Source of the DNA: Escherichia phage phiWAO78-1
Sequence record: MW331437.1
DNA: 44,551 bases
Strand: one strand, 5' to 3'
Positions within the stretch are counted from its first letter, which is position 1. Each line of letters starts with the position of its first letter. A program made the translations under genes and the position numbers. A model generated the notes under the pieces. The model was not told where the DNA came from. It made no database searches and saw nothing but the letters and a program-made list of their open reading frames with translations. Positions 13,234 to 37,009 of this stretch are shown piece by piece.

Positions 13234-13260
13234 AAGGCCCCTTTTGGGGCCTTTCTTCTT
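13234..13260. terminator. Bidirectional rho-independent terminator (AAGGCCCC-TTTT-GGGGCCTT)
   Basis: 8-bp stem with T-tracts on both strands between convergent genes ending at 13229 and 13259. Confidence 0.7.
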
Positions 13261-13813
13261 ACAAACCTAATTTTAAAGCAATGTCTATAACGTTCGATTT
13301 AACGTCACCCGGTATGATATATGTGTCGCAATCTTTTACACCATCAACATCATACAAGTAACCACGGCTATCCCCGTCAAACGTATAGCCGTCTCGGTGC
13401 AAGCGAACAATTCGCACTTCATGCCCAGCGGCGACGATAGGAGCCACTTCACTGGCGAACCCACCGTCGGACACTACAAAAACTTCGTCGCCGTCGGGCA
13501 AGTTTTCAGCAAGATACTTACCGAAATAATCATCGCCGAATACCGGTTTAATGAATTGTTCAGAGATAGCAATCATGAATTGACGGCGAGACAAACCATT
13601 AAGGAATCCTTCTGGCTTTTCTTTCCGCGCCCGGTCGTCGTAGCCGTCGAGAAACTCGTGGTAAGCATCCGGGCCTAACGCTGCCAGAGCGATATTGAAC
13701 ATTGGATTCTTGAAACTGGTAGTTCCTTTCGCAAAGCCCATTTCTACCAGTGCCATAGCAAGTGTGTCTTTCCCGCAACCCGCAGGGCCATTAAGAATAA
13801 TTACATTAGCCAT
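13259..13813 (-). CDS. P-loop nucleotide kinase, deoxynucleoside-monophosphate-kinase-like
   Basis: N-terminal Walker A LNGPAGCGKDT at residue 7; size and GKDT loop resemble phage dNMP kinases (T4 gp1 type). Confidence 0.55.
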   Translation of the reverse strand: MANVIILNGPAGCGKDTLAMALVEMGFAKGTTSFKNPMFNIALAALGPDAYHEFLDGYDDRARKEKPEGFLNGLSRRQFMIAISEQFIKPVFGDDYFGKYLAENLPDGDEVFVVSDGGFASEVAPIVAAGHEVRIVRLHRDGYTFDGDSRGYLYDVDGVKDCDTYIIPGDVKSNVIDIALKLGL

Positions 13814-14298
13814 TATTTATCGCTCCCATGTGATTTTAAGCGTGTAGAGTTCCCGTTACAGTCGTATTCAGTAACCGCGTGCGTCGTGATTCCTAAGCCA
13901 CGGAAATGCTTAATCACCGCTGGCGAGTCGTCGAATGCACACAAGATTCTTTCCAGTCCGATAGCGCGCAACACCTCTTCTTTAATTACGATGTCTTTTC
14001 TGTTGTCGTGTTTGCTACGCATGATTAACTGATAAAATTCGACGCGGTGGCGCTGCAGCCACATTCTGGTTTCTTTTTCTGCATCATCACTGCGACCGGT
14101 TAAAATAATAACGGCGTATCGCCGATTAAGGGCGTTACATAGTTCGATATTATCTCTAATTGGCTCATCGTCTTTGCACGCCATGTTAAATGGCCTCCAA
14201 GCCCATGTTTCGCCGTAGTTATCTTTTGGCAGCAGGTGTAAACGATGTGTACCATCTGCTAATGTCCCGTCTAAATCGAAAATTACAATATCTTTCAT
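13813..14298 (-). CDS. HAD-superfamily phosphatase/hydrolase
   Basis: N-terminal motif I IFDLDGTLADG (DxDGT nucleophile motif) typical of HAD phosphatases. Confidence 0.6.
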   Translation of the reverse strand: MKDIVIFDLDGTLADGTHRLHLLPKDNYGETWAWRPFNMACKDDEPIRDNIELCNALNRRYAVIILTGRSDDAEKETRMWLQRHRVEFYQLIMRSKHDNRKDIVIKEEVLRAIGLERILCAFDDSPAVIKHFRGLGITTHAVTEYDCNGNSTRLKSHGSDK

Positions 14299-15317
14299 CC
14301 CAGCATCTCCGGTGAAATAGTTAAACGCGCAACCTCGCCATATTTGGCGCTATAAGTAATTACATTTGCGCTACGGCCCGACATCCATCCGCCGCGGGAG
14401 GCGTAGGCGTCTTTAGCCGCTAAGGTGCGGTGTTGCTCAACAATCATGTTACGGCTTTCTACAATCTTCTGATGGTGCAGGTGACCTACGTGTGCGTAGC
14501 TGTAGACGCTCTCGCCGAACGCTTTGCGGAACTTGGCAATCATAACTGGTTCGATAGCGTCGAATCGCGCCTTGTGTCCGTGGGTAAAGAACAGCGTCGT
14601 TTTGCCGTGCTGCACCATCTTGTAAACATCCGGCGACGTATCGACGAACACACGCGGCTCATTGTCGTACAGCGTACTGAACATCTCAGCCAACCAAATC
14701 ATACCCGATTCGTCGTGGTTCCCTTGCACGATAAGCAGTCGGACGTTTTTATGTTTAACGAGCGCCATATCAACAACACGGCGTACCATACGAATCATGT
14801 AGCGGACAAGTTTCTGATAACGGGTGTCGGCGTCAAGAGCGTGACCGCTTGCAGGTGTAACGGCAACCAGACTATCGAAGTGCGCGAAGTCGCCTAGCAG
14901 GTTAATAACTCCGGTCCCAGCGTCCGGCGCTTTCTGAAACGCCTCGTCGAACCATCGGGAGAACAGGCCCTCCGCGATTTTCATATCCCAGTCGTCGCCG
15001 CTCTCGTCGGCCCAGGCCAGCATACCGAGATGGAAATCAGACACAGTGTAAAGATTGAGTAGTTTATCGTCGCGTTTGGCGCGAATGGTTTTAACAGGTG
15101 CAACGGGGGTAATCTCTGACTTCATGCCTTCAATTACGGCTTTCATCAACTCGACCTGACGTTCGGCGTCGGTTTCTGTCTTAACCCATTGCAACTTAGT
15201 ATTGCCGAGTTCGTCCACCAGAGACGACGTCCCCTTAATCTTGTAGCCGTCCGGGACAAGGTGACTAACGTCGCGACCGTGACCTACGCCTTTCTTGGCC
15301 AGCTCGCTTTCGGACAC
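14295..15317 (-). CDS. Calcineurin-like metallophosphoesterase
   Basis: Ordered motifs D-x-H (VSDFHLG), GD (LLGDFAHFD), GNH[DE] (VQGNHDE), FTHGH and GHLHH; GTG start; roughly 80-aa N-terminal extension before the first motif. Confidence 0.7.
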   Translation of the reverse strand: MSESELAKKGVGHGRDVSHLVPDGYKIKGTSSLVDELGNTKLQWVKTETDAERQVELMKAVIEGMKSEITPVAPVKTIRAKRDDKLLNLYTVSDFHLGMLAWADESGDDWDMKIAEGLFSRWFDEAFQKAPDAGTGVINLLGDFAHFDSLVAVTPASGHALDADTRYQKLVRYMIRMVRRVVDMALVKHKNVRLLIVQGNHDESGMIWLAEMFSTLYDNEPRVFVDTSPDVYKMVQHGKTTLFFTHGHKARFDAIEPVMIAKFRKAFGESVYSYAHVGHLHHQKIVESRNMIVEQHRTLAAKDAYASRGGWMSGRSANVITYSAKYGEVARLTISPEMLG

Positions 15318-24867: not shown

Positions 24868-25003
24868 ACTCTTCTGATAACTTCTCCAGTACAAACGCCA
24901 GTTGCGCATTAGCGGCGTCTCTTTGCTGCCGTAGTCGCAGAACCTCTTCTTCGAGTTCCTTGATACGTTTTTGCAATGCCGGAATCGGGGCTATGATGTT
25001 CAT
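24866..25003 (-). CDS. Small coiled-coil protein (45 aa, hypothetical)
   Basis: ATG overlaps the stop of the upstream Toprim ORF (ATGA); below ORF-track cutoff. Confidence 0.25.
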   Translation of the reverse strand: MNIIAPIPALQKRIKELEEEVLRLRQQRDAANAQLAFVLEKLSEE

Positions 25004-25515
25004 CTGGTAAATTTCCTCGCAAGATACGTTATTTCTTCTTCACAAAGTTCATCAAGGTCGTTTGACACAAATCCTCTGGTGAATGTTTTGCTGAACTTTA
25101 AGCCAGCTTTATCATTGTCGCCCGCGCACACCCAGTCATACGGCAAAAGTGCCATTTGCTGCCGTAGGTCGGTTGGTATATTTGACCCAAGTGCGCTTAC
25201 GGCATTGAACCCGCAATTCATCAAAGCAACAGCTTTAAATATGCTTTCGGTAACAAATACGGTCCCGCTTTCCGGAAGGTATTCGAGCCCCCATAAACAA
25301 GGTCTTGTTGTTCTGGTGAAGTACCGCGCGTCTTTAGGATTTTTACAGTTCTTTTCAGCATGTGGCTTGTAGTGCTGATATCCGCGTAGCTTACCGTCAA
25401 ACCCCCACAGGTAAAATGTAGCTACACCGGGGGCTAAGACTACTCGTAAACGGCCGGCGTCAAAACCACGTGACAGCAGATGTGCCTTAAGTAGAAACTC
25501 CTCGCCATCCATCAT
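25000..25515 (-). CDS. Toprim-domain protein (putative DnaG-like primase core)
   Basis: Conserved Glu in VFVTESIFKAV and DxD in CAGDNDKAG match Toprim catalytic motifs. Confidence 0.5.
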   Translation of the reverse strand: MMDGEEFLLKAHLLSRGFDAGRLRVVLAPGVATFYLWGFDGKLRGYQHYKPHAEKNCKNPKDARYFTRTTRPCLWGLEYLPESGTVFVTESIFKAVALMNCGFNAVSALGSNIPTDLRQQMALLPYDWVCAGDNDKAGLKFSKTFTRGFVSNDLDELCEEEITYLARKFTR

Positions 25516-28666: not shown

Positions 28667-30847
28667 TTACTTGGCATAACGTTTTAACTCCTGACCTTCC
28701 GCTACAAGAGGGAACCCCTCGGCCCACTCTGGTAATTCGCACATCAACCGTTCCAGTTCTGCGACATTGTATTCCGGTGAATCTGGTGTCTCGCAGATAA
28801 TCTCATCGTGTACGTGAAGCACAATCGGGTAGCCGTTTGCTTCAACGTTCAGCAGTGCATTAGCCAGCAAATCACGGCACAGCGCCTGAGTGCAGTTTTC
28901 CACCAGTTTACCGGAGTAGGTGTACTGGAAGCCCCACTGACGGGTTAGCTGATTTTCGCCCTGGTACTTGATGCGCACGTTAGTAGACACCTTCCCATCT
29001 TCGTCTGTCTCTTTCGACACGCTCAATCCTACGCCCGGGTAAGACATAACGCGACCTGACGGCAGCGTCATACGCAACCACCAACCGGCGACTTTGTTGC
29101 CGTTGTTGTCTGTCTCCGCGTTACGCGAAAACTTAACCCCCCGCGGCCCTGCGGTGAACTCTTTACCAGGATTGCGGATAGCTGCCATAGCCGCGTCTTC
29201 AATATCTCGCCAGAAAGCTACGGTTTCCGGGTGGGACTCACGCCACATGCGTTTGATAGCGTCACAGGTACGCCACACTTTCTTATCAAGAATATATGAT
29301 GGTCGGTCATCCTTTTCACCGGGACGCGGAGGTCGCTTGGCCTCCTGAATGCGCGCCCACTCGTATCCGCGTGCGGTAGCAGCCCATATATGGTCGGGGA
29401 AAGTACCGTCCATTGTTTTAGCCATATCAACGAGGTCAAGGCCGAGGTTCTTAGCAAACTGAACGAAAGCACCAACACCACCTGCGTAGCCGAGGCCCAA
29501 TTCACAGGCTTTACCAATCTGGCGTAAGTCTTTACGTTCCTTCTTAATGTAATCTGGATCCATGCCGAACATCTTACCTGCGGTTACGCAGTAAATATCA
29601 AGACCGGCGCGGAACGTATCGAGTGCGGTTTCTTCTCCTGCCAGCCATGCCAACCCGCGGCCTTCAACGTTAGAGTAATCGGCAACAACAAACTTATGCC
29701 CAGCTTCCGGTATGATGCAACTACGAACCGTCGATGCCGTTAGTTTGGCTACATCGAAACGGCGATGCGCGCGGCCCTTAAGTAACGCAGAAATCCCTTT
29801 ATCCAGTTCATCATCGTGATAGTACCCGCGTGCCAGGTTCTGCGGCTGGAAGCCTTTGCCAGCAAACCGTAGCGTACGCTTTGCCCCGCCATACTGGATG
29901 CAACCGCGACGGCGGTCGTCAGACGAGCGACCCAACAGCAGCGGGTTATATTTCGTTGACGCGGTGGACGCGGCCCCGAGGCGCATTTCGATAATAGTGC
30001 GGGCGTCGTCAGGTAAATCATCATCAGCCAACAGGTCGTTAAGCGTTGACTTCTGCGCGTTGTGGATGCGGTGCGCTGGTGCAAGTTCACGCAGAATCGG
30101 AAGGAAGTCTTTACCTGTAAGCGAGCCGCCGTATTTGCGTTGGGCTTCTTCTTGTAACTGCGCCTTGTGTTTCTCTACGGCTTCAATCGCGGCTTCTGCC
30201 AGTGCAACGTCAACCTTAAACCCGCGGTCATTGATTAACTGGTCAAGTTCCAGTACACGGTCTTCGAACTCGGAGTTACCCCACCGCGGCAGCTTATGGA
30301 ACACTTCACGCATCGCAGTGATGTCGCTCACGGCGTACTTGATGAACAGCGCCCACTCGTCCGGGTGTGTTTCAGCGGTGTAACGGCGGATTTTGTAGTT
30401 CTTCGGTGTCGGTTTAGAGAAACGCTGAATCAGCGCCTTACCACGTTTGTCTTTTGCATTGTCAGCAGACACCCCCAGCACTTCACACAATGCGTCAAGT
30501 GAACCCGGCAACGCGTGACGAAACGCCCAAATCATCGTATCAATGGTGTTGCTTACCGGAATATCAAAGCCCCAGCAGTGCTTCATGATGAGCCTATCGA
30601 ACATTGAGCCGTTGTGCCACACCATCTTGATGCGGCTGTTCGGCTTCACCAGGCGGCGTAACGCGCGGTGTAAATCTCCCGGCATGTCGCCGCCGTCGGT
30701 GCAATCCCACACCTGCACAGGCTCGTCATCAAAAGCATAGGTACAGATTAGCACTTCGGTAGTTGGATGTTCGGCGTAGGCATAAGAACCGACTTTCTTT
30801 AAATCGGCTTCGGAGAATGTTTCAAAGTCTAAGAACAGGTAACTCAT
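28667..30847 (-). CDS. DNA polymerase, family A, with 3'-5' exonuclease domain
   Basis: Exo I FLDFETFS, pol motif A DYSNVEGR, motif B RQIGKACELGLGYAGG, motif C LHVHDEI. Confidence 0.9.
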   Translation of the reverse strand: MSYLFLDFETFSEADLKKVGSYAYAEHPTTEVLICTYAFDDEPVQVWDCTDGGDMPGDLHRALRRLVKPNSRIKMVWHNGSMFDRLIMKHCWGFDIPVSNTIDTMIWAFRHALPGSLDALCEVLGVSADNAKDKRGKALIQRFSKPTPKNYKIRRYTAETHPDEWALFIKYAVSDITAMREVFHKLPRWGNSEFEDRVLELDQLINDRGFKVDVALAEAAIEAVEKHKAQLQEEAQRKYGGSLTGKDFLPILRELAPAHRIHNAQKSTLNDLLADDDLPDDARTIIEMRLGAASTASTKYNPLLLGRSSDDRRRGCIQYGGAKRTLRFAGKGFQPQNLARGYYHDDELDKGISALLKGRAHRRFDVAKLTASTVRSCIIPEAGHKFVVADYSNVEGRGLAWLAGEETALDTFRAGLDIYCVTAGKMFGMDPDYIKKERKDLRQIGKACELGLGYAGGVGAFVQFAKNLGLDLVDMAKTMDGTFPDHIWAATARGYEWARIQEAKRPPRPGEKDDRPSYILDKKVWRTCDAIKRMWRESHPETVAFWRDIEDAAMAAIRNPGKEFTAGPRGVKFSRNAETDNNGNKVAGWWLRMTLPSGRVMSYPGVGLSVSKETDEDGKVSTNVRIKYQGENQLTRQWGFQYTYSGKLVENCTQALCRDLLANALLNVEANGYPIVLHVHDEIICETPDSPEYNVAELERLMCELPEWAEGFPLVAEGQELKRYAK

Positions 30848-30863
30848 TATTTTCGACCCTTAG

Positions 30864-30887
30864 TAAAAAGGCCCAATGAAGGGCCTT
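30864..30887 (-). terminator. Rho-independent terminator on the minus strand (AAGGCCC-TTCATT-GGGCCTT + TTT)
   Basis: Stem-loop about 20 nt downstream of the minus-strand gene ending at 30907. Confidence 0.55.
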
Positions 30888-30906
30888 AGTTAAATTGATT
30901 CAGATA

Positions 30907-31533
30907 TTAGCGGCGACGACGTTCGCGGCGTGGTGCTTCATCTTCTTCGTCGTCTTCGAGGTCATCGACGCTCGCAGCAACTTTAGAACCACCGAACGCT
31001 TTACCTTCACCGACGTATTTAATCGCCAGCAGGTTAACACCGAGAACTTTGTATTTCTGGCTGAACCAGATTTCAACGCTTACGTTAGCGACGCAGCCGC
31101 TGTAAACCTGTTCACCTTCAATCTGTTCGCCGTCTACGTTGAAATCCTGTTCTACCTGAGTCTCGCCTTTTTTAGATGTTACGATCAGTGGCTGTTTCTG
31201 TGCCTTCGCTTTGAAGTAGAAGCCTTCCGGGAAATCTTCAAACGGATTGTCGCGCTCGGCAATGTCTTTAATCGCACATTTATCCATGTGCTTTCCTTCG
31301 CCGTAGTTTGACTTCATCCACTTCTCGGCGGCGGCAGCACCTAATGCTTCTTCAACTACAGCGTAAACAGTGTCGTAGAGCGCATCGATTTGCGCATGGT
31401 CAGACGGCAGGATAATAGTCGCGCTGTACTGACCCTTAGTGATTGAGCCATCGTCGTTTTCACGGTCTTTTTCGCGTTCGAATACGTTAACCCATGCAGT
31501 GTTTACTTTACGCAGATTCAGTTTAATACCCAT
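30907..31533 (-). CDS. Single-stranded DNA-binding protein-like (putative)
   Basis: 208 aa with strongly acidic C-terminal tail (DDLEDDEEDEA) as in many SSBs; adjacent to Cas4-like nuclease and DNA polymerase; family assignment by context and memory. Confidence 0.45.
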   Translation of the reverse strand: MGIKLNLRKVNTAWVNVFEREKDRENDDGSITKGQYSATIILPSDHAQIDALYDTVYAVVEEALGAAAAEKWMKSNYGEGKHMDKCAIKDIAERDNPFEDFPEGFYFKAKAQKQPLIVTSKKGETQVEQDFNVDGEQIEGEQVYSGCVANVSVEIWFSQKYKVLGVNLLAIKYVGEGKAFGGSKVAASVDDLEDDEEDEAPRRERRRR

Positions 31534-31591
31534 CTTGATTTCTCGCTTTTAGGTTTCGTCTACTCCGGGAGCTGCCCGGCCAGTGATTATA

Positions 31592-31620
31592 AATATAATA
31601 GCTAACTATTCAGGTGTCAA
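31592..31620 (-). promoter_or_regulatory. Class-2 promoter F: TTGACA-N17-TATATT with AATAG-N4-CTATT dyad in the spacer
   Basis: Consensus -35 and near-consensus -10 at 17-nt spacing on the minus strand upstream of 30907-31533. Confidence 0.6.
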
Positions 31621-31624
31621 CACT

Positions 31625-31828
31625 TTATTTAAGTTTCTTCGGAACTACCTTATAAATATAGGGCTGCACCGCCTCATGCTTTGAGTTCTTCTCTTCTGCA
31701 ATTTTGTCGGCGTCGGCGCGTTTAGCGTGAACAGAAACAATATCAAGTTCTTGAATGGAGTATCGGCGGTGATACCGCGTGAGAATATAAACCATCATTC
31801 TAAATCCTCCTCTGTTACCTGATTCCAC
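31625..31828 (-). CDS. Hypothetical small protein
   Basis: 67 aa ORF overlapping the 3' end of the upstream nuclease gene. Confidence 0.35.
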   Translation of the reverse strand: MESGNRGGFRMMVYILTRYHRRYSIQELDIVSVHAKRADADKIAEEKNSKHEAVQPYIYKVVPKKLK

Positions 31829-33060
31829 TCAGGACGTTTGTCGTCTGCCGTTGCAACACATGGCACCCCTGGCTTGCGTGTTATAAATGGTTCAAGCGCC
31901 GCCATCTCATCTGCCGAAAGAACTTTTGCTGCCTCCGTAGGGGACATCAATACCTCTTTTTTGAGAATGTCGCCGTGTGATACTTTAATAGCATCGGCAT
32001 CTTTCCACGCACGATTACCCGGGCGACCCTCAACCAGTTTGTACCCCAGCACTTTCTTACCGGAATGCAATGCAGCAGCCATAGCTTTCTCAACCTTGTC
32101 GATGTGCTGGCGCAACAACGGCAACTTCTCATACTCAGCTACGAGTTGCTCCAGCGTAAGTTCCAACGCAAAGTCGTCTTCCAGTTCTTCCGCCAGTACC
32201 GCGTTAACGGTTTTTGTACGCGCGGCGCACTGTTCGGAGAACCGACACCACTGGCAACCATCTACCGACGGCCTGAAGTCTGACGTTTTCAGGTTCTTCT
32301 TGCCACGGGAATAGGCATCAAGGGCCAACAGTGCACGTTTCTGTGCGAACTTAGCAAACAGTTCAAGGCCTTCAACCGAGATGTCCCACTCCGACGCGCC
32401 ACCAGCATACGGCTGGAAGATTACCAGACGCACAACTGTGATGTTATAACGTCTCTTGAGTCTGCGATAAACACCGAGAGCATAGAGCATAAGCTGCTTG
32501 TTTTCTTTCGCTTCGACACGATGTCGTCCTGTTTTAAGGTCGGTGACATTGAGGATATGTTCGTCTGTGTTAGCCTTTTCAAGAACGGCAACAAGGTCGG
32601 CTGTTCCGAACGTCTCGACGCCTTCATACCCCGGATGCAATACCTCAGTAAGATTTACGCGCATTTCCAGCTTGGCGTAAGTAGCAACGTCTATAATCGC
32701 TTTGCAGTAGTCGGTGTACTTGCGCACCTGCTCAATCATGTCAGCCGTAATCAGTACCGCGCCTTTCATCGGGCTTATTAATGCCTTAATCTGGCCTTTA
32801 CCTTCATCCAGCACGTAAGCACCAACTTCACGCTCTAACGGCAACGCAGTGCCTTTGATGTACTGGTTTAGATGAATCTCGGCTATAGTGTGCATCGCTG
32901 TGCCTAATACCGCGGCTTTACCTGACGTGTTAGGAATATCTTTTTCACACGCCAGTGATGCCGCGCAACTTAGCCACTTCTTAGCACCTGACGGCGACAG
33001 CAGGGCGTGTACGTCGTTATTGCCGCCGCGTTCCTTTAAAATCATACCCTGTTCTCCCAC
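31795..33060 (-). CDS. PD-(D/E)XK nuclease, Cas4/RecB-like exonuclease (putative recombination exonuclease)
   Basis: 421 aa; N-terminal LSPSGAKKWLSC, and C-terminal Cys cluster CQWCRFSEQC typical of Cas4-like Fe-S nucleases. Confidence 0.65.
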   Translation of the reverse strand: MGEQGMILKERGGNNDVHALLSPSGAKKWLSCAASLACEKDIPNTSGKAAVLGTAMHTIAEIHLNQYIKGTALPLEREVGAYVLDEGKGQIKALISPMKGAVLITADMIEQVRKYTDYCKAIIDVATYAKLEMRVNLTEVLHPGYEGVETFGTADLVAVLEKANTDEHILNVTDLKTGRHRVEAKENKQLMLYALGVYRRLKRRYNITVVRLVIFQPYAGGASEWDISVEGLELFAKFAQKRALLALDAYSRGKKNLKTSDFRPSVDGCQWCRFSEQCAARTKTVNAVLAEELEDDFALELTLEQLVAEYEKLPLLRQHIDKVEKAMAAALHSGKKVLGYKLVEGRPGNRAWKDADAIKVSHGDILKKEVLMSPTEAAKVLSADEMAALEPFITRKPGVPCVATADDKRPEWNQVTEEDLE

Positions 33061-33314
33061 TGGTCAATTAAATGTCGTGTCTTATGGTCACAGTGCATAG
33101 CCCACCCATACATCGACTCGAAGACATAAAAGTCAGGCTTGGCGAAAGTCGTGCGCTTAATCTGCGACACGTGACGGCCTATATCTTTAGGCCGTGGTAC
33201 TTTGCCCAGGTACGCCATCTCTTCCATCTGATGCGCACCGGACGGCGCACGCAACAGCCACAACGCCTCCATGTTATCCCGCCTGTCAACGGCGCGGTAG
33301 AGTTGGTAAATCAT
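33042..33314 (-). CDS. Hypothetical protein
   Basis: 90 aa ORF in the early operon with overlapping start/stop. Confidence 0.35.
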   Translation of the reverse strand: MIYQLYRAVDRRDNMEALWLLRAPSGAHQMEEMAYLGKVPRPKDIGRHVSQIKRTTFAKPDFYVFESMYGWAMHCDHKTRHLIDQWENRV

Positions 33315-34149: not shown

Positions 34150-34179
34150 ACTATAATAGCTAACTATTCAGGATGTCAA
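34150..34179 (-). promoter_or_regulatory. Class-2 promoter G: TTGACA-N18-TATAGT with AATAG-N4-CTATT dyad in the spacer
   Basis: Consensus -35 and near-consensus -10 on the minus strand; divergent from the XRE-type regulator gene. Confidence 0.6.
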
Positions 34180-34243
34180 CGGGCTTTTCTAAAATAATTA
34201 ATATGGTACTATTCACATATCAACTGACTAAGGAGTAACTGAC

Positions 34244-34459
34244 ATGCAACCATCTGAACTAGGCATCCGTGTAGAGCAACGCCGTAAAGAACTCGGCATC
34301 TCCCAGCGCCGTCTGGCAGTCCTGACCGGCGTTTCCCAGGGCGCAATTAACCAGCTGGCACTTGGGGTAACTCAGGACGTCCGCCCGGCGACGCTGTTTA
34401 AACTGGCGGAAGTGCTGCAAGTAGACGCGAAGTGGCTGGCGCTAGGTGAAGGGGCTTAA
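34244..34459 (+). CDS. XRE-family helix-turn-helix transcriptional regulator (Cro/CI-like)
   Basis: 71 aa; ISQRRLAVLTGVSQGAINQL is a classic XRE-type HTH; AAGGAG SD; divergently transcribed from the early operon. Confidence 0.7.
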   Translation: MQPSELGIRVEQRRKELGISQRRLAVLTGVSQGAINQLALGVTQDVRPATLFKLAEVLQVDAKWLALGEGA

Positions 34460-34476
34460 TGCCCCTTTCTTTTTAC

Positions 34477-36717
34477 CTATTCCAAATCATCCTCTGTCAC
34501 CACCAGCATTTCATTCGGTTCGTATATTGTCTTTGGCCTCAATCTGTCGCCCATCTTTTCAGGTATCCGGTATGTGCCTGGTATAACTTCACCGTTAACA
34601 TCGCACCCGAGCATCAACTCACCGTCTTTCAGCATCTTCTCAAGATGGTGGTTGGTGATGGCGTGGTCCCCCGAGTTCGCCACTATCTGCCGTTGGGTAA
34701 AACCTCGTCCGGTGTCGTCGGACTGTTGCAGGTCTTCCAGCGCGGCGAGTATTGATTCCTTACGCCCTTCATCCTTCCCGCGTTTTACAGCATTCTTTAC
34801 GTTTTCTTTACCTTCTTTAGTTAACCCTTCTTCCCGCTCCTTCTCCTCGTCAGTTTTGAACGGCTCGAAGCCCCACGGCATCAGCACAAGCGCCTTGTGC
34901 GGCTCAGGCAGATCGAGGTTTACGATTGTGCCGTATTCCTCTGTGCAGCCGAGGAACTCAACAGCGCGATACTCTTTCGGCGGCGGAGCCTCACGGAACT
35001 GTACCGACTCCAGCACCATGCCAACCGTTTTCTGTTGAGGCCCGTGCTTAAATTTAGAGTGGTATACGTTTATCTGGCGGTCGGTCGCACGCTCAATTGT
35101 TAGCTCCACGTCGACACCCGCATACAGTGCCCCACTACCTCGGGCTTTCTTTCCACCCTTCGGAGTATGGTGGACAACACCCACCGCGGCTTTGGTTGCA
35201 TCACGCACTTCTTTCAGGATGGCAATGACTTTACCCATGCCGATTGCCGTCGATGAACTGTTCTCGTCGAACTTATCAATCGTCAGGGCCAGCGTCTGGT
35301 TAAGGGTGTCGAAGGCAACCATGCCAATTGGCTCGTCGCCTGCGGTTTCGCGCATTAGCTTAATAAGGCTTTTCAGTTTTCCAACTTCACCCATGTCGAT
35401 AACATGTACATAATCTTTACCTTCCTCGCCGTATTTAGCCGCGAGTGCGTCGATACGGGTGCGTGTAGCTGCGCCCCCCTCACCGTCAATATAGAAATGG
35501 TGGCAACGCTGGGTGTCGGCCCCGGCAAACCGGTATCCGGCAGCACTAAGGTACATCATACCCAGCGTATAGAATGATTTGTACGTGCCAGATTCCCCGA
35601 CGATGCCCCAGATACAATCCGATGGCATGTACCCTTCAACGACGAAATCAGCCTTTACCGGTTCTGGTAGCTCGTCCTCCTCTGGGTCATCGTCGTCTTC
35701 CAGGTCGTCGAGGCTGCATGAAACAGATTCACGCGCACCCCAGCCGATAGCCTCTGCGACTTCACTGAACGGCAGGCCAGTCGCATCGCACGCATATTTC
35801 CACACCTCTTTCGGCGACATACCTTCGGTTGCCATAATGTCGGTGTCGTGAATCATGGTTACGTTCGGCGCTTCATATCCTTCACGCGGGAAACACAGCA
35901 GGAAGTCGTCCGGACGCGGCGTCGGGTCGCTGTAGTTTTCTGCATGCTCTGGTGTGGCTGGCATCTTAAGGCCGCGTGGTGTCATAACACCGCCGTACTC
36001 GAACGCCAGTGCCTCAAACGCATCAGTAAACGCAGTGCGCAGTTCTTCCGGTATCTGGTAATCCGATGCGCTGCTCACCTCATAATCCGGTACGCCTTCC
36101 AGTAACTCGTCCGGGTCAATCAGGTCGTTGCGGCGCGACCAGATAACGGTAGAGCCTACCGGTGGCAGGTACATCGGTTGTGACAGAGTGAACCCGCTGC
36201 GGTCGGCGCCCATGCCTTTGAAGAAGTGCTCCAGCAATCCATGACGAACACGAATGATGTCACCGCCCTCAACCGTTCGGGCCAGCGGCATGACGACGCG
36301 AAAGCGCGGGGCTTCGTCTGTGTGTGATGCCGTGGTATAGAGGCACATCGCCCGCCGGCTGCGCTTAACCAGGCGCACAGCTTCCTGATACTCTTCCAGG
36401 GTTGCACTGTCAAAGTCCAGGTACGCCAGCGACGATTTGCTTACAGACGCGTCGCAGCGATAGAAAAAGCCTTTACGCGCTTGCTTAAAGTCACCTGTTT
36501 CCGGGTCTTTTACGGTGCTGTGCGTAGAGTCGCACGCGGCGGTGATGTAGCCAGGCGCGGTCTTCGAGTTAATCCCGTCACGGACGGCATCGAGCGGCTG
36601 GATTAAATCTTTCAGGTCGTCCAGTGTTGCCGTGTGTGTCGTTCTGACGTTTATATCCTTTTTCTCCGCCCTCGCGTTGCGACGGGACCACGAGTAGGAT
36701 AAAATCACATCGGACAT
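34477..36717 (-). CDS. DNA primase/helicase (RecA-like P-loop ATPase with N-terminal primase-like region)
   Basis: 746 aa; Walker A GIVGESGTYKS and downstream RecA-fold features in the central domain; size and context of phage primase-helicases. Confidence 0.7.
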   Translation of the reverse strand: MSDVILSYSWSRRNARAEKKDINVRTTHTATLDDLKDLIQPLDAVRDGINSKTAPGYITAACDSTHSTVKDPETGDFKQARKGFFYRCDASVSKSSLAYLDFDSATLEEYQEAVRLVKRSRRAMCLYTTASHTDEAPRFRVVMPLARTVEGGDIIRVRHGLLEHFFKGMGADRSGFTLSQPMYLPPVGSTVIWSRRNDLIDPDELLEGVPDYEVSSASDYQIPEELRTAFTDAFEALAFEYGGVMTPRGLKMPATPEHAENYSDPTPRPDDFLLCFPREGYEAPNVTMIHDTDIMATEGMSPKEVWKYACDATGLPFSEVAEAIGWGARESVSCSLDDLEDDDDPEEDELPEPVKADFVVEGYMPSDCIWGIVGESGTYKSFYTLGMMYLSAAGYRFAGADTQRCHHFYIDGEGGAATRTRIDALAAKYGEEGKDYVHVIDMGEVGKLKSLIKLMRETAGDEPIGMVAFDTLNQTLALTIDKFDENSSSTAIGMGKVIAILKEVRDATKAAVGVVHHTPKGGKKARGSGALYAGVDVELTIERATDRQINVYHSKFKHGPQQKTVGMVLESVQFREAPPPKEYRAVEFLGCTEEYGTIVNLDLPEPHKALVLMPWGFEPFKTDEEKEREEGLTKEGKENVKNAVKRGKDEGRKESILAALEDLQQSDDTGRGFTQRQIVANSGDHAITNHHLEKMLKDGELMLGCDVNGEVIPGTYRIPEKMGDRLRPKTIYEPNEMLVVTEDDLE

Positions 36718-36775: not shown

Positions 36776-37009
36776 TTATTCCAGGTCTTCTAAAGTAGCG
36801 GCCATTCCGCGAACTTCAGCAACAGCGCTATATCTCCCGCCAACATTTTTCACGACACCGGATTTAACCAGTACCTTTAACGACCCTTCAATAATGGCTG
36901 AACTATAGTACTTAAAATAACTACGGCGCAAGTCGATAACGCTGCATGACCCTTTTTTACGTGTTAATGAAACGACTGCCGTAAACACTCGTGATTGAAA
37001 CTCAGTCAT
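36776..37009 (-). CDS. Hypothetical protein
   Basis: 77 aa ORF overlapping the upstream HTH gene. Confidence 0.4.
   Translation of the reverse strand: MTEFQSRVFTAVVSLTRKKGSCSVIDLRRSYFKYYSSAIIEGSLKVLVKSGVVKNVGGRYSAVAEVRGMAATLEDLE

Follow-up and report, generated by a model that had tools for sequence, protein, structure and literature searches.

A known module of a DUF2800 nuclease, a gp2.5-type SSB and a family A DNA polymerase in Escherichia phage phiWAO78-1, and an acidic C-terminal peptide shared among its replication proteins

Escherichia phage phiWAO78-1 (sequence record MW331437.1; 44,551 nt, very probably its complete genome, the whole of which is referred to below as the window) is a K1G-like Kagunavirus siphophage, and the DNA of its replication region is ~91% identical to that of Escherichia phage K1G (Kagunavirus, Guernseyvirinae) and many relatives. 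The region at positions 30907-33060 is most likely the core of a T7-like replication/recombination module. As a preliminary description made from the letters of the window had stated, it contains two open reading frames (ORFs), at 30907..31533 (208 aa, from an ATG) and 31795..33060 (421 aa, from a GTG), both on the minus strand, as are all features given below unless a plus strand is indicated. These are adjoined by a family A DNA polymerase (PolA) gene at 28667..30847, directly downstream of the 208-aa gene and supported by Pfam and PHROG matches. The family matches mark the ORFs as genuine genes and not chance reading frames. The gene trio encodes a RecB/Cas4-like nuclease (DUF2800), a T7 gp2.5-type single-stranded DNA (ssDNA)-binding (SSB) and annealing protein (DUF2815), and PolA. 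The preliminary description had proposed profile searches of the DUF2800 and DUF2815 type, and both profiles matched, well over their curated cut-offs.

The start of the nuclease gene is most likely the ATG at 33045, which yields a protein of 416 aa (31795..33045) instead of the 421 aa of the maximal ORF opening at GTG 33060, the length that had been described initially. We prefer the ATG, and reject the GTG, because the ATG overlaps the stop codon of the upstream 90-aa gene (ATGA), because 416 aa is the length of the identical phiWAO78-1 database protein ('PD-(D/E)XK nuclease superfamily protein', 100% identity), and because the annotated K1G homologue has a corresponding length (1251 nt). 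The protein matches the Pfam family DUF2800 (PF10926) across the entire profile (positions 1-368/368, residues 18-410 of the 421-aa ORF; E = 1.2e-66, 225.8 bits, cutoff 21), as well as PDDEXK_1 (PF12705; 5.5e-10, 40 bits, cutoff 22) and PHROG 69, 'exonuclease' (8e-119). NCBIfam contained no match of any kind to the nuclease (E <= 1), and none to the SSB.

An exhaustive HMMER search among 1.84 billion representatives retrieved 10,689 DUF2800 relatives (~10,700 representative clusters), and residue conservation was evaluated in an alignment of 146 DUF2800 representatives that are 29-58% identical to the phiWAO78-1 nuclease (residues are numbered on the 416-aa protein). Near the N-terminus, the motif S17-P-S19...C27 (32965..32997) carries the nearly invariant S19 (143/146) and C27 (145/146), the latter being the first Cys ligand of a predicted 4Fe-4S 'iron staple', and aligns with the SPS...C motif of AdnA. 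The catalytic core (32482..32598) consists of G-T-A-D150, D169-L-K171 and Q184-x3-Y188 (Q184LMLY188), in which D150, D169, K171, Q184 and Y188 are invariant (146/146). Also invariant are all members of the Cys triad C264-x2-C267-x5-C273 (32227..32256), which aligns with the CxxCx5C of AdnA and of the Cas4-family protein 9iac. The full set of family-conserved residues (H13, S19, C27, H52, D150, D169, K171, Q184, Y188, C264, C267, C273, K336 and D402/R404, kept in 133-146 of the 146 sequences) is present in the phiWAO78-1 protein. Judged by these motifs, the protein bears the RecB-family catalytic signature together with the four-Cys spacing of iron-sulfur 'staple' nucleases; a 4Fe-4S cluster is predicted at C27, C264, C267 and C273, and its nuclease activity and polarity are putative. 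C33 was rejected as a candidate ligand, as it is not conserved in the alignment whereas C27 is. The Cys cluster noted in the preliminary description therefore exists, but it does not lie at the C-terminus of the protein: it closes the nuclease domain, and ~140 residues follow it.

An AlphaFold2 (AF2) model of the nuclease, built from 80 diverse homologues (pLDDT 92.2, pTM 0.83), resembled most closely the nuclease domains of AdnA, Dna2 and Cas4, with AdnA and Dna2 nearer than Cas4; Dna2 and MGME1 were among the best structural matches, and RecE, lambda Exo and RecB were matched as well. A family profile compared with the PDB sequences found AdnA (6ppu, 6.2e-4) and 9iac (5.6e-4), with the SPS...C, DLKxG, QLxxY and CxxCx5C motifs aligned. 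The nuclease core is flanked by the arrangement typical of an iron staple, a first Cys separated by a long interval from C-x2-C-x5-C, and these cysteines align with those of AdnA. The substrates of RecB-family Fe-S nucleases (AddB, AdnA, Dna2, EXO5, Cas4) are 5'-ended ssDNA or the 5' strand of DNA ends. DUF2800 was grouped as RecB-like in 2012 (PMC3424549).

'Cas4-like Fe-S nuclease', the name used in the preliminary description, is thus a fair one as far as the fold, the catalytic motifs and the four-Cys signature are concerned, but the protein is not a member of the Cas4 family. It had no match to the Cas4 Pfam family PF01930 (E <= 0.01) or to an NCBIfam Cas4 model, and its neighbours are not cas genes but the SSB, PolA, primase-helicase and small ORFs, with SSB and PolA as partners in a set of 165 loci (no dedicated CRISPR-array scan was made). 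The protein also differs from AdnA/AddB, Dna2, EXO5 and Cas4 in standing alone, without a helicase motor, and in possessing an extra C-terminal domain. This family-specific domain (residues ~286-400, ~115-130 aa; 31846..32190) was delimited by the AF2 model and a conserved signature, and opens with an internal acidic stretch, EELEDDFALEL (~32160-32190), after which come one long helix and then a small alpha/beta unit bearing GxKLVxGRxGNRxW. Within it K336 is invariant, and G329, G334, G343, R345 and W347 are at least 90% conserved. The pLDDT is 72-74 over the linker (~281-300) and mostly >80 over 301-416, so that the domain is modelled as folded rather than disordered; a recent preprint calls the corresponding region of the homologue Bas14_0045 disordered (bioRxiv 10.64898/2026.07.14.737667). 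A profile of the domain compared with PDB sequences found no credible solved homologue, only spurious matches to designed proteins. The protein ends in the tail DDKRPEWNQVTEEDLE (31798..31845), in which a D-K/P-R-P motif (D402 138/146, R404 133/146) is followed by a terminal acidic/hydrophobic peptide.

The partner of the nuclease, whose identity the preliminary description had left uncertain, belongs to the Enc34 ORF6 family of T7 gp2.5-type SSBs. The 208-aa protein (30907..31533) matches Pfam Enc34_ssDNA-bd (PF10991, formerly DUF2815; 8e-16, 58.6 bits, cutoff 26, profile positions 3-173/176) and PHROG 112, 'Gp2.5-like ssDNA binding protein and ssDNA annealing protein' (2e-42). When its homologues were made into a profile and compared with PDB sequences, the three solved DUF2815 structures, 4jg2 (7.7e-8), 4klk and 5odj (Enc34 SSB), were retrieved; a direct phmmer search reached only 4jg2 (2e-4). 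Its AF2 model, made from 11 sequences, was unreliable (pLDDT 38; helices predicted at 47-93), and the assignment of a gp2.5 fold therefore rests on the profiles and the literature. T7 gp2.5 coats ssDNA and anneals complementary strands. By its profile matches the 208-aa protein is classed as a T7 gp2.5-type OB-fold SSB, and by analogy it probably binds ssDNA and anneals strands. Cernooka et al. reported that Enc34 ORF6 binds ssDNA, has an OB fold of the T7 gp2.5 variety, and owes its ssDNA specificity to an acidic tail (PMC5686142). In Staphylococcus phage phi12, Lopes et al. (2010) found a Gp2.5-like gene beside a recE-like gene and a PolI gene, and the Gp2.5-like protein performed single-strand annealing in vivo, an activity abolished by R79C/R83C (PMC2896510). 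In an alignment, R83 of the Staphylococcus aureus Triavirus homologue shares its column with K89 of the phiWAO78-1 protein, where relatives have K or R, and K89 would accordingly be the equivalent of the basic residue needed for annealing, R82 in T7 gp2.5 and R83 in phi12.

The C-terminal tail of the SSB, AASVDDLEDDEEDEAPRRERRRR (30910..30978), combines an acidic block with a conserved Arg-rich end, and both elements (DDLEDxEED and APRRxRR) are kept down to homologues of 49% identity. The initial description of the protein as acidic-tailed is hence half right: the block DDLEDDEEDE provides the acidic unstructured segment expected of an SSB, but the actual end is formed by the conserved basic APRRERRRR, which is atypical after an acidic block. 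This basic end (30910-30936) is unlike the acidic/aromatic terminus of T7 gp2.5 or E. coli SSB. In the Dhillonvirus SSB the acidic-then-basic unit is duplicated (...DEDEAPRKRRK...DEDEAPRKRRRR). The Arg-rich end might pair with the acidic tails of partner proteins. Taken together, the protein resembles Enc34 ORF6 (PDB 5odj/5odl) and T7 gp2.5 (1je5) in its Pfam family (shared with Enc34), its acidic C-terminal segment and the basic residue at the annealing position; direct sequence similarity to them is low, and its tail ends in APRRERRRR where that of T7 gp2.5 ends in ...EDGDF. Among the 30 ORFs of the window that were scanned against PHROGs (the pair and 28 others) there was no other SSB or annealase, nor any RecT, Erf or Rad52-type PHROG or Pfam match, in agreement with a published remark that gp2.5 neighbourhoods are devoid of ssb genes (PMC8093625).

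The polymerase (726 aa) matches DNA_pol_A (PF00476; 3.7e-16, 59.5 bits, cutoff 34.3) and PHROG 17 (1e-139), with a 3'-5' exonuclease region indicated by a weak DNA_pol_A_exo1 match. NCBIfam PolA models matched partially, under their equivalog cut-offs, and no 5'-nuclease domain was detected in the protein with Pfam or NCBIfam. Matches to DpoZ were dismissed as far under the cut-off (29 vs 500 bits), and give no evidence of aminoadenine DNA.

To place the trio among its relatives we used 165 loci taken from IMG/VR and GenBank. In 160/165 of them the nuclease gene is immediately followed, on the same strand, by the SSB gene (median gap 89 nt), and PolA is found downstream of the pair in 140/165. 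Of the 25 loci without PolA in the stretch covered, 20 still have the SSB directly downstream, and many of these stretches stop at a contig end. The nuclease-SSB-PolA order recurs, for example, in Dhillonvirus EP23, Acinetobacter phage 4316, S. aureus phi2958PVL (Triavirus), Pectobacterium phage MA11 (Casjensviridae) and Streptococcus phage Javan531. By tblastn, the nuclease was found in 1,575 of 50,697 phage records, under annotations that range from 'exonuclease' to 'Cas4 or RecB-like nuclease'. Steczkiewicz et al. (2021) described this arrangement as the 'duf2800-gp2.5-polA module', present also in phages of Gram-negative hosts (PMC8093625); it had first been seen in phi12, as the recE-like, Gp2.5-like and PolI genes (PMC2896510). 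The three families, their order and their orientation are identical in phiWAO78-1, where likewise no separate ssb was found among the 30 scanned ORFs. Nothing essential differs; particular to the lineage are the replacement of Phe by Leu in the tail motif (EDLE), the Arg-rich SSB end and a variable small ORF. The parallel with exonuclease/annealase pairs and the linkage to PolA that had been put forward for this region are therefore borne out, and, since the trio is published and annotated, the module is already known: phiWAO78-1 carries a correct but ordinary instance of it.

The view that the genes form one operon holds in that they are contiguous and co-oriented, but only partly, as a near-consensus promoter lies upstream of the SSB gene and a terminator-like hairpin precedes the polymerase gene. 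The promoter-like site, of sigma-70 type, has the sequence TTGACA-17-TATATT (31592..31620; 11/12 match) and is located just upstream of the SSB gene, in the gap that separates it from a small 57-aa ORF. Its -35 hexamer is also present in K1G, and its -10 hexamer is kept as TATAGT in K1G and Bas74 (the aligned Bas74 stretch starts downstream of the -35). The hairpin, AAGGCCC-UUCAUU-GGGCCUU followed by a U-run (30865..30887), has a 7-bp GC-rich stem and is present in the minimum free energy fold of the stretch between the SSB and polymerase genes. K1G and Bas74 have this hairpin unchanged, and Dhillonvirus EP23 has one of different sequence, with a T-run, at the same place. We infer from these signals that the SSB gene is a boosted sub-unit, from which read-through into the polymerase gene would be attenuated. 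A second promoter-like site, TTGACA-18-TATAGT (34150..34179; 11/12 match), is found upstream of a 173-aa gene and probably drives the 173-aa, 80-aa, 90-aa, nuclease and 57-aa genes; the ORFs in the order 173 aa - 80 aa - 90 aa - nuclease overlap or abut. The last of the unit, a 57-aa ORF (31625..31798), sits between the nuclease and SSB genes, and its ATG overlaps the nuclease stop codon (ATGA), so that the two appear translationally coupled. It had no Pfam, PHROG or NCBIfam match. The slot that it occupies is empty in K1G and contains an unrelated 67-aa ORF in Bas74, which marks the nuclease-SSB gap, in these sequences, as a variable insertion point inside the module.

Two further observations concern control of the region. 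The stretch 34150-34460 appears, on both strands, to be a divergent control region, in which a 71-aa HTH repressor-like gene (34244..34459, plus strand) faces minus-strand promoter-like sites at 34223..34194 and 34179..34150 that lead into the nuclease-containing unit. A hairpin in the 5' untranslated region of the SSB gene (CCGGG...CCCGG) was rejected as a candidate regulatory RNA: it is kept in close relatives, but scored z +0.4 to -0.4 against shuffled sequences. Rfam matched nothing within 30700-33200.

The C-terminus of the nuclease, ...VTEEDLE (31798-31845), recurs elsewhere in the genome. Among the 545 six-frame ORFs with a length of 40 aa or more, exactly three have the ending [DE][DE]L[DE], and all three are minus-strand replication genes: the nuclease, the primase-helicase (...VTEDDLE, 34477-34500) and a 77-aa protein (...ATLEDLE, 36776-36800). 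From composition, 0.03 such ends are expected (Poisson P ~4e-6 for the three observed). The primase-helicase (746 aa, 34477..36717; PHROG 3228, 5.5e-299; Pfam AAA_25) carries the acidic peptide twice, at its C-terminus and in its interdomain linker (SLDDLEDDDDPEEDE), and the 77-aa protein (36776..37009) belongs to PHROG 5169, with all 23 of 23 homologues ending in [DE]DL.{0,3}. The set of tail peptides in phiWAO78-1 consists of NQVTEEDLE, VVTEDDLE, AATLEDLE and SVDDLEDDEEDE. The SSB tail itself contains SVDDLEDD, and the only other DDLEDD in any frame is the SLDDLEDD of the primase-helicase linker. That linker, SLDDLEDDDDPEEDELPEP (~35650-35710, residues ~335-355), repeats the SSB string as S(V/L)DDLEDD; the interdomain linker of the nuclease is likewise acidic, with the internal EELEDDFALEL mentioned above.

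The same pattern was seen among relatives. In the enterobacterial clade (84 loci, which are not independent), a [DE]DL.{0,3}-COOH tail is carried by 74/82 nucleases, 64/79 primase-helicases and 23/23 homologues of the 77-aa protein, as compared with 10 of 9,352 other ORFs, and by none of the polymerases, SNF2 helicases, VRR-NUC proteins or SSB termini. Across the DUF2800 family, proteins end in ...DKRPA...(D/E)(D/E)F(E/D)(D/N)(L/V/I)..., often followed by ...DL(I/V)-COOH, and the cognate SSB tail bears the same bipartite motif. In one locus (L118), for example, the nuclease tail is NDFDDVSEDAIAADLI and that of the SSB DDFDDISEGADAEGLV; both proteins end in DMI in another (L135), and in EF(I/V) in a third (L166). 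A strict form of the motif, located no more than 25 residues from the C-terminus, occurred 63 times in 5,812 ORFs of 51 loci, and 60 of these were in the SSB (38) or the nuclease (22). Cognate nuclease and SSB tails were more alike than permuted pairs in 57 dereplicated loci, with 0/5,000 permutations reaching the observed score (z 5.4-7.6; shared ancestry uncorrected). The sharing extends further in the Casjensviridae, where up to five or six proteins have a common terminal peptide, the SNF2 helicase and the small terminase among them. In MA11 the ending DD(D/E)L is found on the primase, nuclease, SSB and helicase, and in Klebsiella phage Salado D(D/E)V ends the primase, the nuclease, the SSB, the small terminase and a 130-aa protein. 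As a control, T7 has a common tail on gp2.5 (...EDGDF) and gp4 (...NDTDF), and its gp6 exonuclease is without it.

The matching (E/D)DLE ends and the co-variation of nuclease and SSB tails suggest a common docking peptide. Its form, as the sequences imply, would be an acidic run ending in a hydrophobic residue, changing in step across phage lineages. The tail of T7 gp2.5 contacts the polymerase and the helicase, and competes with ssDNA for the SSB cleft (PMC10359462; PMC5686142). We regard it as an even bet that the tails are a lineage-coded docking peptide (EDLE; DDFxDL...DL[IV]; DDDL; DDEV), by which DNA-processing enzymes compete for one receptor in the replisome; this receptor may be the ssDNA cleft of the SSB, its Arg-rich end, or the polymerase. 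No description of the shared tail was found in the literature mentioning DUF2800 or DUF2815, and the analysis suggests that this shared, co-varying acidic peptide on the nuclease and other replication proteins is its one fresh detail.

Our preferred reading, to which we assign a probability of roughly two in three, is that nuclease, SSB and PolA constitute a T7-like replication/recombination core made of an Fe-S nuclease, an annealing SSB and a polymerase. In this model DUF2800 would be a metal-dependent RecB-family nuclease, its fold stapled by the predicted 4Fe-4S cluster (C27, C264, C267, C273), and its most likely action would be at DNA ends, nicks or flaps, where it trims or degrades the 5'-ended strand. 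The gp2.5-type OB-fold SSB would coat the exposed ssDNA and anneal complementary strands, and the polymerase would extend the annealed 3' end, so that the trio could provide for repair by single-strand annealing, for recombination-dependent replication and for the formation of concatemers. The replication fork would use this SSB as well, because no other SSB was recognised among the scanned ORFs. It would be made from its own strong promoter, with the terminator-like hairpin throttling read-through into the polymerase gene, as would suit a protein required in stoichiometric amounts. A C-terminal (E/D)DLE that resembles the tail of the SSB would probably bring the nuclease, the primase-helicase and the 77-aa protein to one hub, the SSB cleft or the polymerase.

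Several points weigh against this reading. No biochemical characterisation of any DUF2800 protein was found in the literature, and activity, polarity and Fe-S cluster are homology-based. The structure prediction of the SSB is unusable, leaving its gp2.5 fold to profile matches. The hairpin between the SSB and polymerase genes (30887..30865) is only modestly better than shuffled sequences (z -1.8) and does not appear in the list of a consensus scan. The permutation test of tail co-variation ignores the shared ancestry of the loci. In Dhillonvirus Bas14, moreover, the DUF2800 gene tolerates truncations, found in escapers of a retron (bioRxiv 10.64898/2026.07.14.737667), and is therefore not essential there.

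The nuclease could instead be mainly a replication enzyme, removing 5' flaps or primers in the manner of Dna2 or MGME1, as an analogue of T7 gp6 or of the 5'-nuclease of Pol I, with recombination as a side effect. We find this unlikely as the principal role, though it is the strongest of the alternatives: the best structural matches include Dna2 and MGME1, the regions recognised in PolA are limited to polymerase and 3'-5' exonuclease, and the nuclease is tightly linked to PolA and SSB and has a replisome-type tail in common with the primase-helicase. Also on this side, the T7 record annotates gp6 as needed for recombination and for degradation of host DNA. Against it, published gene-context and in-vivo data favour exonuclease/annealase recombination over flap removal (PMC2896510), the closest fold is that of AdnA, a nuclease of double-strand break resection, and Bas14 can do without the gene, although its loss might there be made good by host Pol I. 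Flap removal and end resection are compatible with each other and not mutually exclusive.

The annotation of gp6 as also degrading host DNA raises another alternative, that the nuclease mainly degrades the DNA of the host or of competitors, whether to scavenge nucleotides, to shut off the host or to counter defences, and that its adjacency to the SSB is incidental. A link of the family to the phage-defence interface does exist, in that a type IX retron senses a DUF2800 nuclease. We nevertheless hold this to be improbable, since the ordered linkage with SSB and PolA extends across phages of Gram-positive and Gram-negative hosts, temperate ones included, and the co-varying tails argue for an integrated role in the replisome or in recombination over that of a free-acting DNase. 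Least credible, to the point of being nearly negligible, is the reading as a genuine viral Cas4 that would disturb the acquisition of CRISPR spacers by the host or turn it to its own use. The fold and motifs that earned the protein its Cas4-like name are set against the lack of a Cas4 match in Pfam and NCBIfam, full-length membership in the distinct DUF2800 family with its extra ~130-aa domain, constant partners that are SSB and PolA and not cas genes, and the greater structural proximity of AdnA and Dna2.

The T7-like core that we favour can be compared with the T7 replisome (gp2.5, gp4, gp5, gp6), with which it has in common a gp2.5-type SSB, a fused primase-helicase, a PolA and a 5'-end nuclease, whose polarity is here a prediction. 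In both phages the SSB and the primase-helicase bear a common acidic peptide (...DGDF and ...DTDF in T7; DDLEDD and ...DDLE in phiWAO78-1). The phiWAO78-1 nuclease differs in being a predicted Fe-S enzyme of the RecB PD-(D/E)XK family and not of the gp6 type, and in carrying the shared tail, which gp6 does not; the phiWAO78-1 primase-helicase is of the AAA_25 type. With respect to lambda Red (Exo/Beta) and RecET, the annealing partner in phiWAO78-1 is an OB-fold, gp2.5-type SSB and not a Rad52-like protein such as Red-beta, RecT or Erf, the nuclease has the Fe-S signature and an extra domain, and the pair is joined to a PolA replication module.

Elsewhere in the genome, a minus-strand cluster within the otherwise plus-strand structural region (13259-15317) encodes a 'DNA repair exonuclease' (PHROG 704, 2e-153), a polynucleotide kinase (PHROG 415) and a dNMP kinase (PHROG 139), and is a second nuclease/end-repair set in the genome. 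A 171-aa ORF beside the SNF2 helicase gene (25000-25515) matches several 'DNA primase' PHROGs (849, 9.5e-48), although a 746-aa primase-helicase is already encoded; it could represent a primase-like fragment or else an accessory domain protein.

Annotations of the module exist in the record of phiWAO78-1 itself and in those of hundreds of relatives, and its description in the literature goes back to 2010. The module as first described for this region thus contributes nothing new, and the shared C-terminal peptide is the sole element that might repay follow-up. The practical value of the module lies in the breadth of DUF2800 (1,575 phage records, ~10,700 clusters), a family for which the literature yet offers no biochemical characterisation. 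The homologue Bas14_0045 was reported in July 2026 to be the trigger of a type IX retron (Sen3) (bioRxiv 10.64898/2026.07.14.737667), and by analogy the phiWAO78-1 nuclease may be sensed by such a retron as well. The shared peptide may explain why defence systems sense the module, and it opens the wiring of the nuclease to the SSB and the polymerase to inexpensive tests. If the docking interpretation is true, the tail principle of T7 gp2.5 and gp4 would extend to a nuclease and to a very large, uncharacterised phage family.

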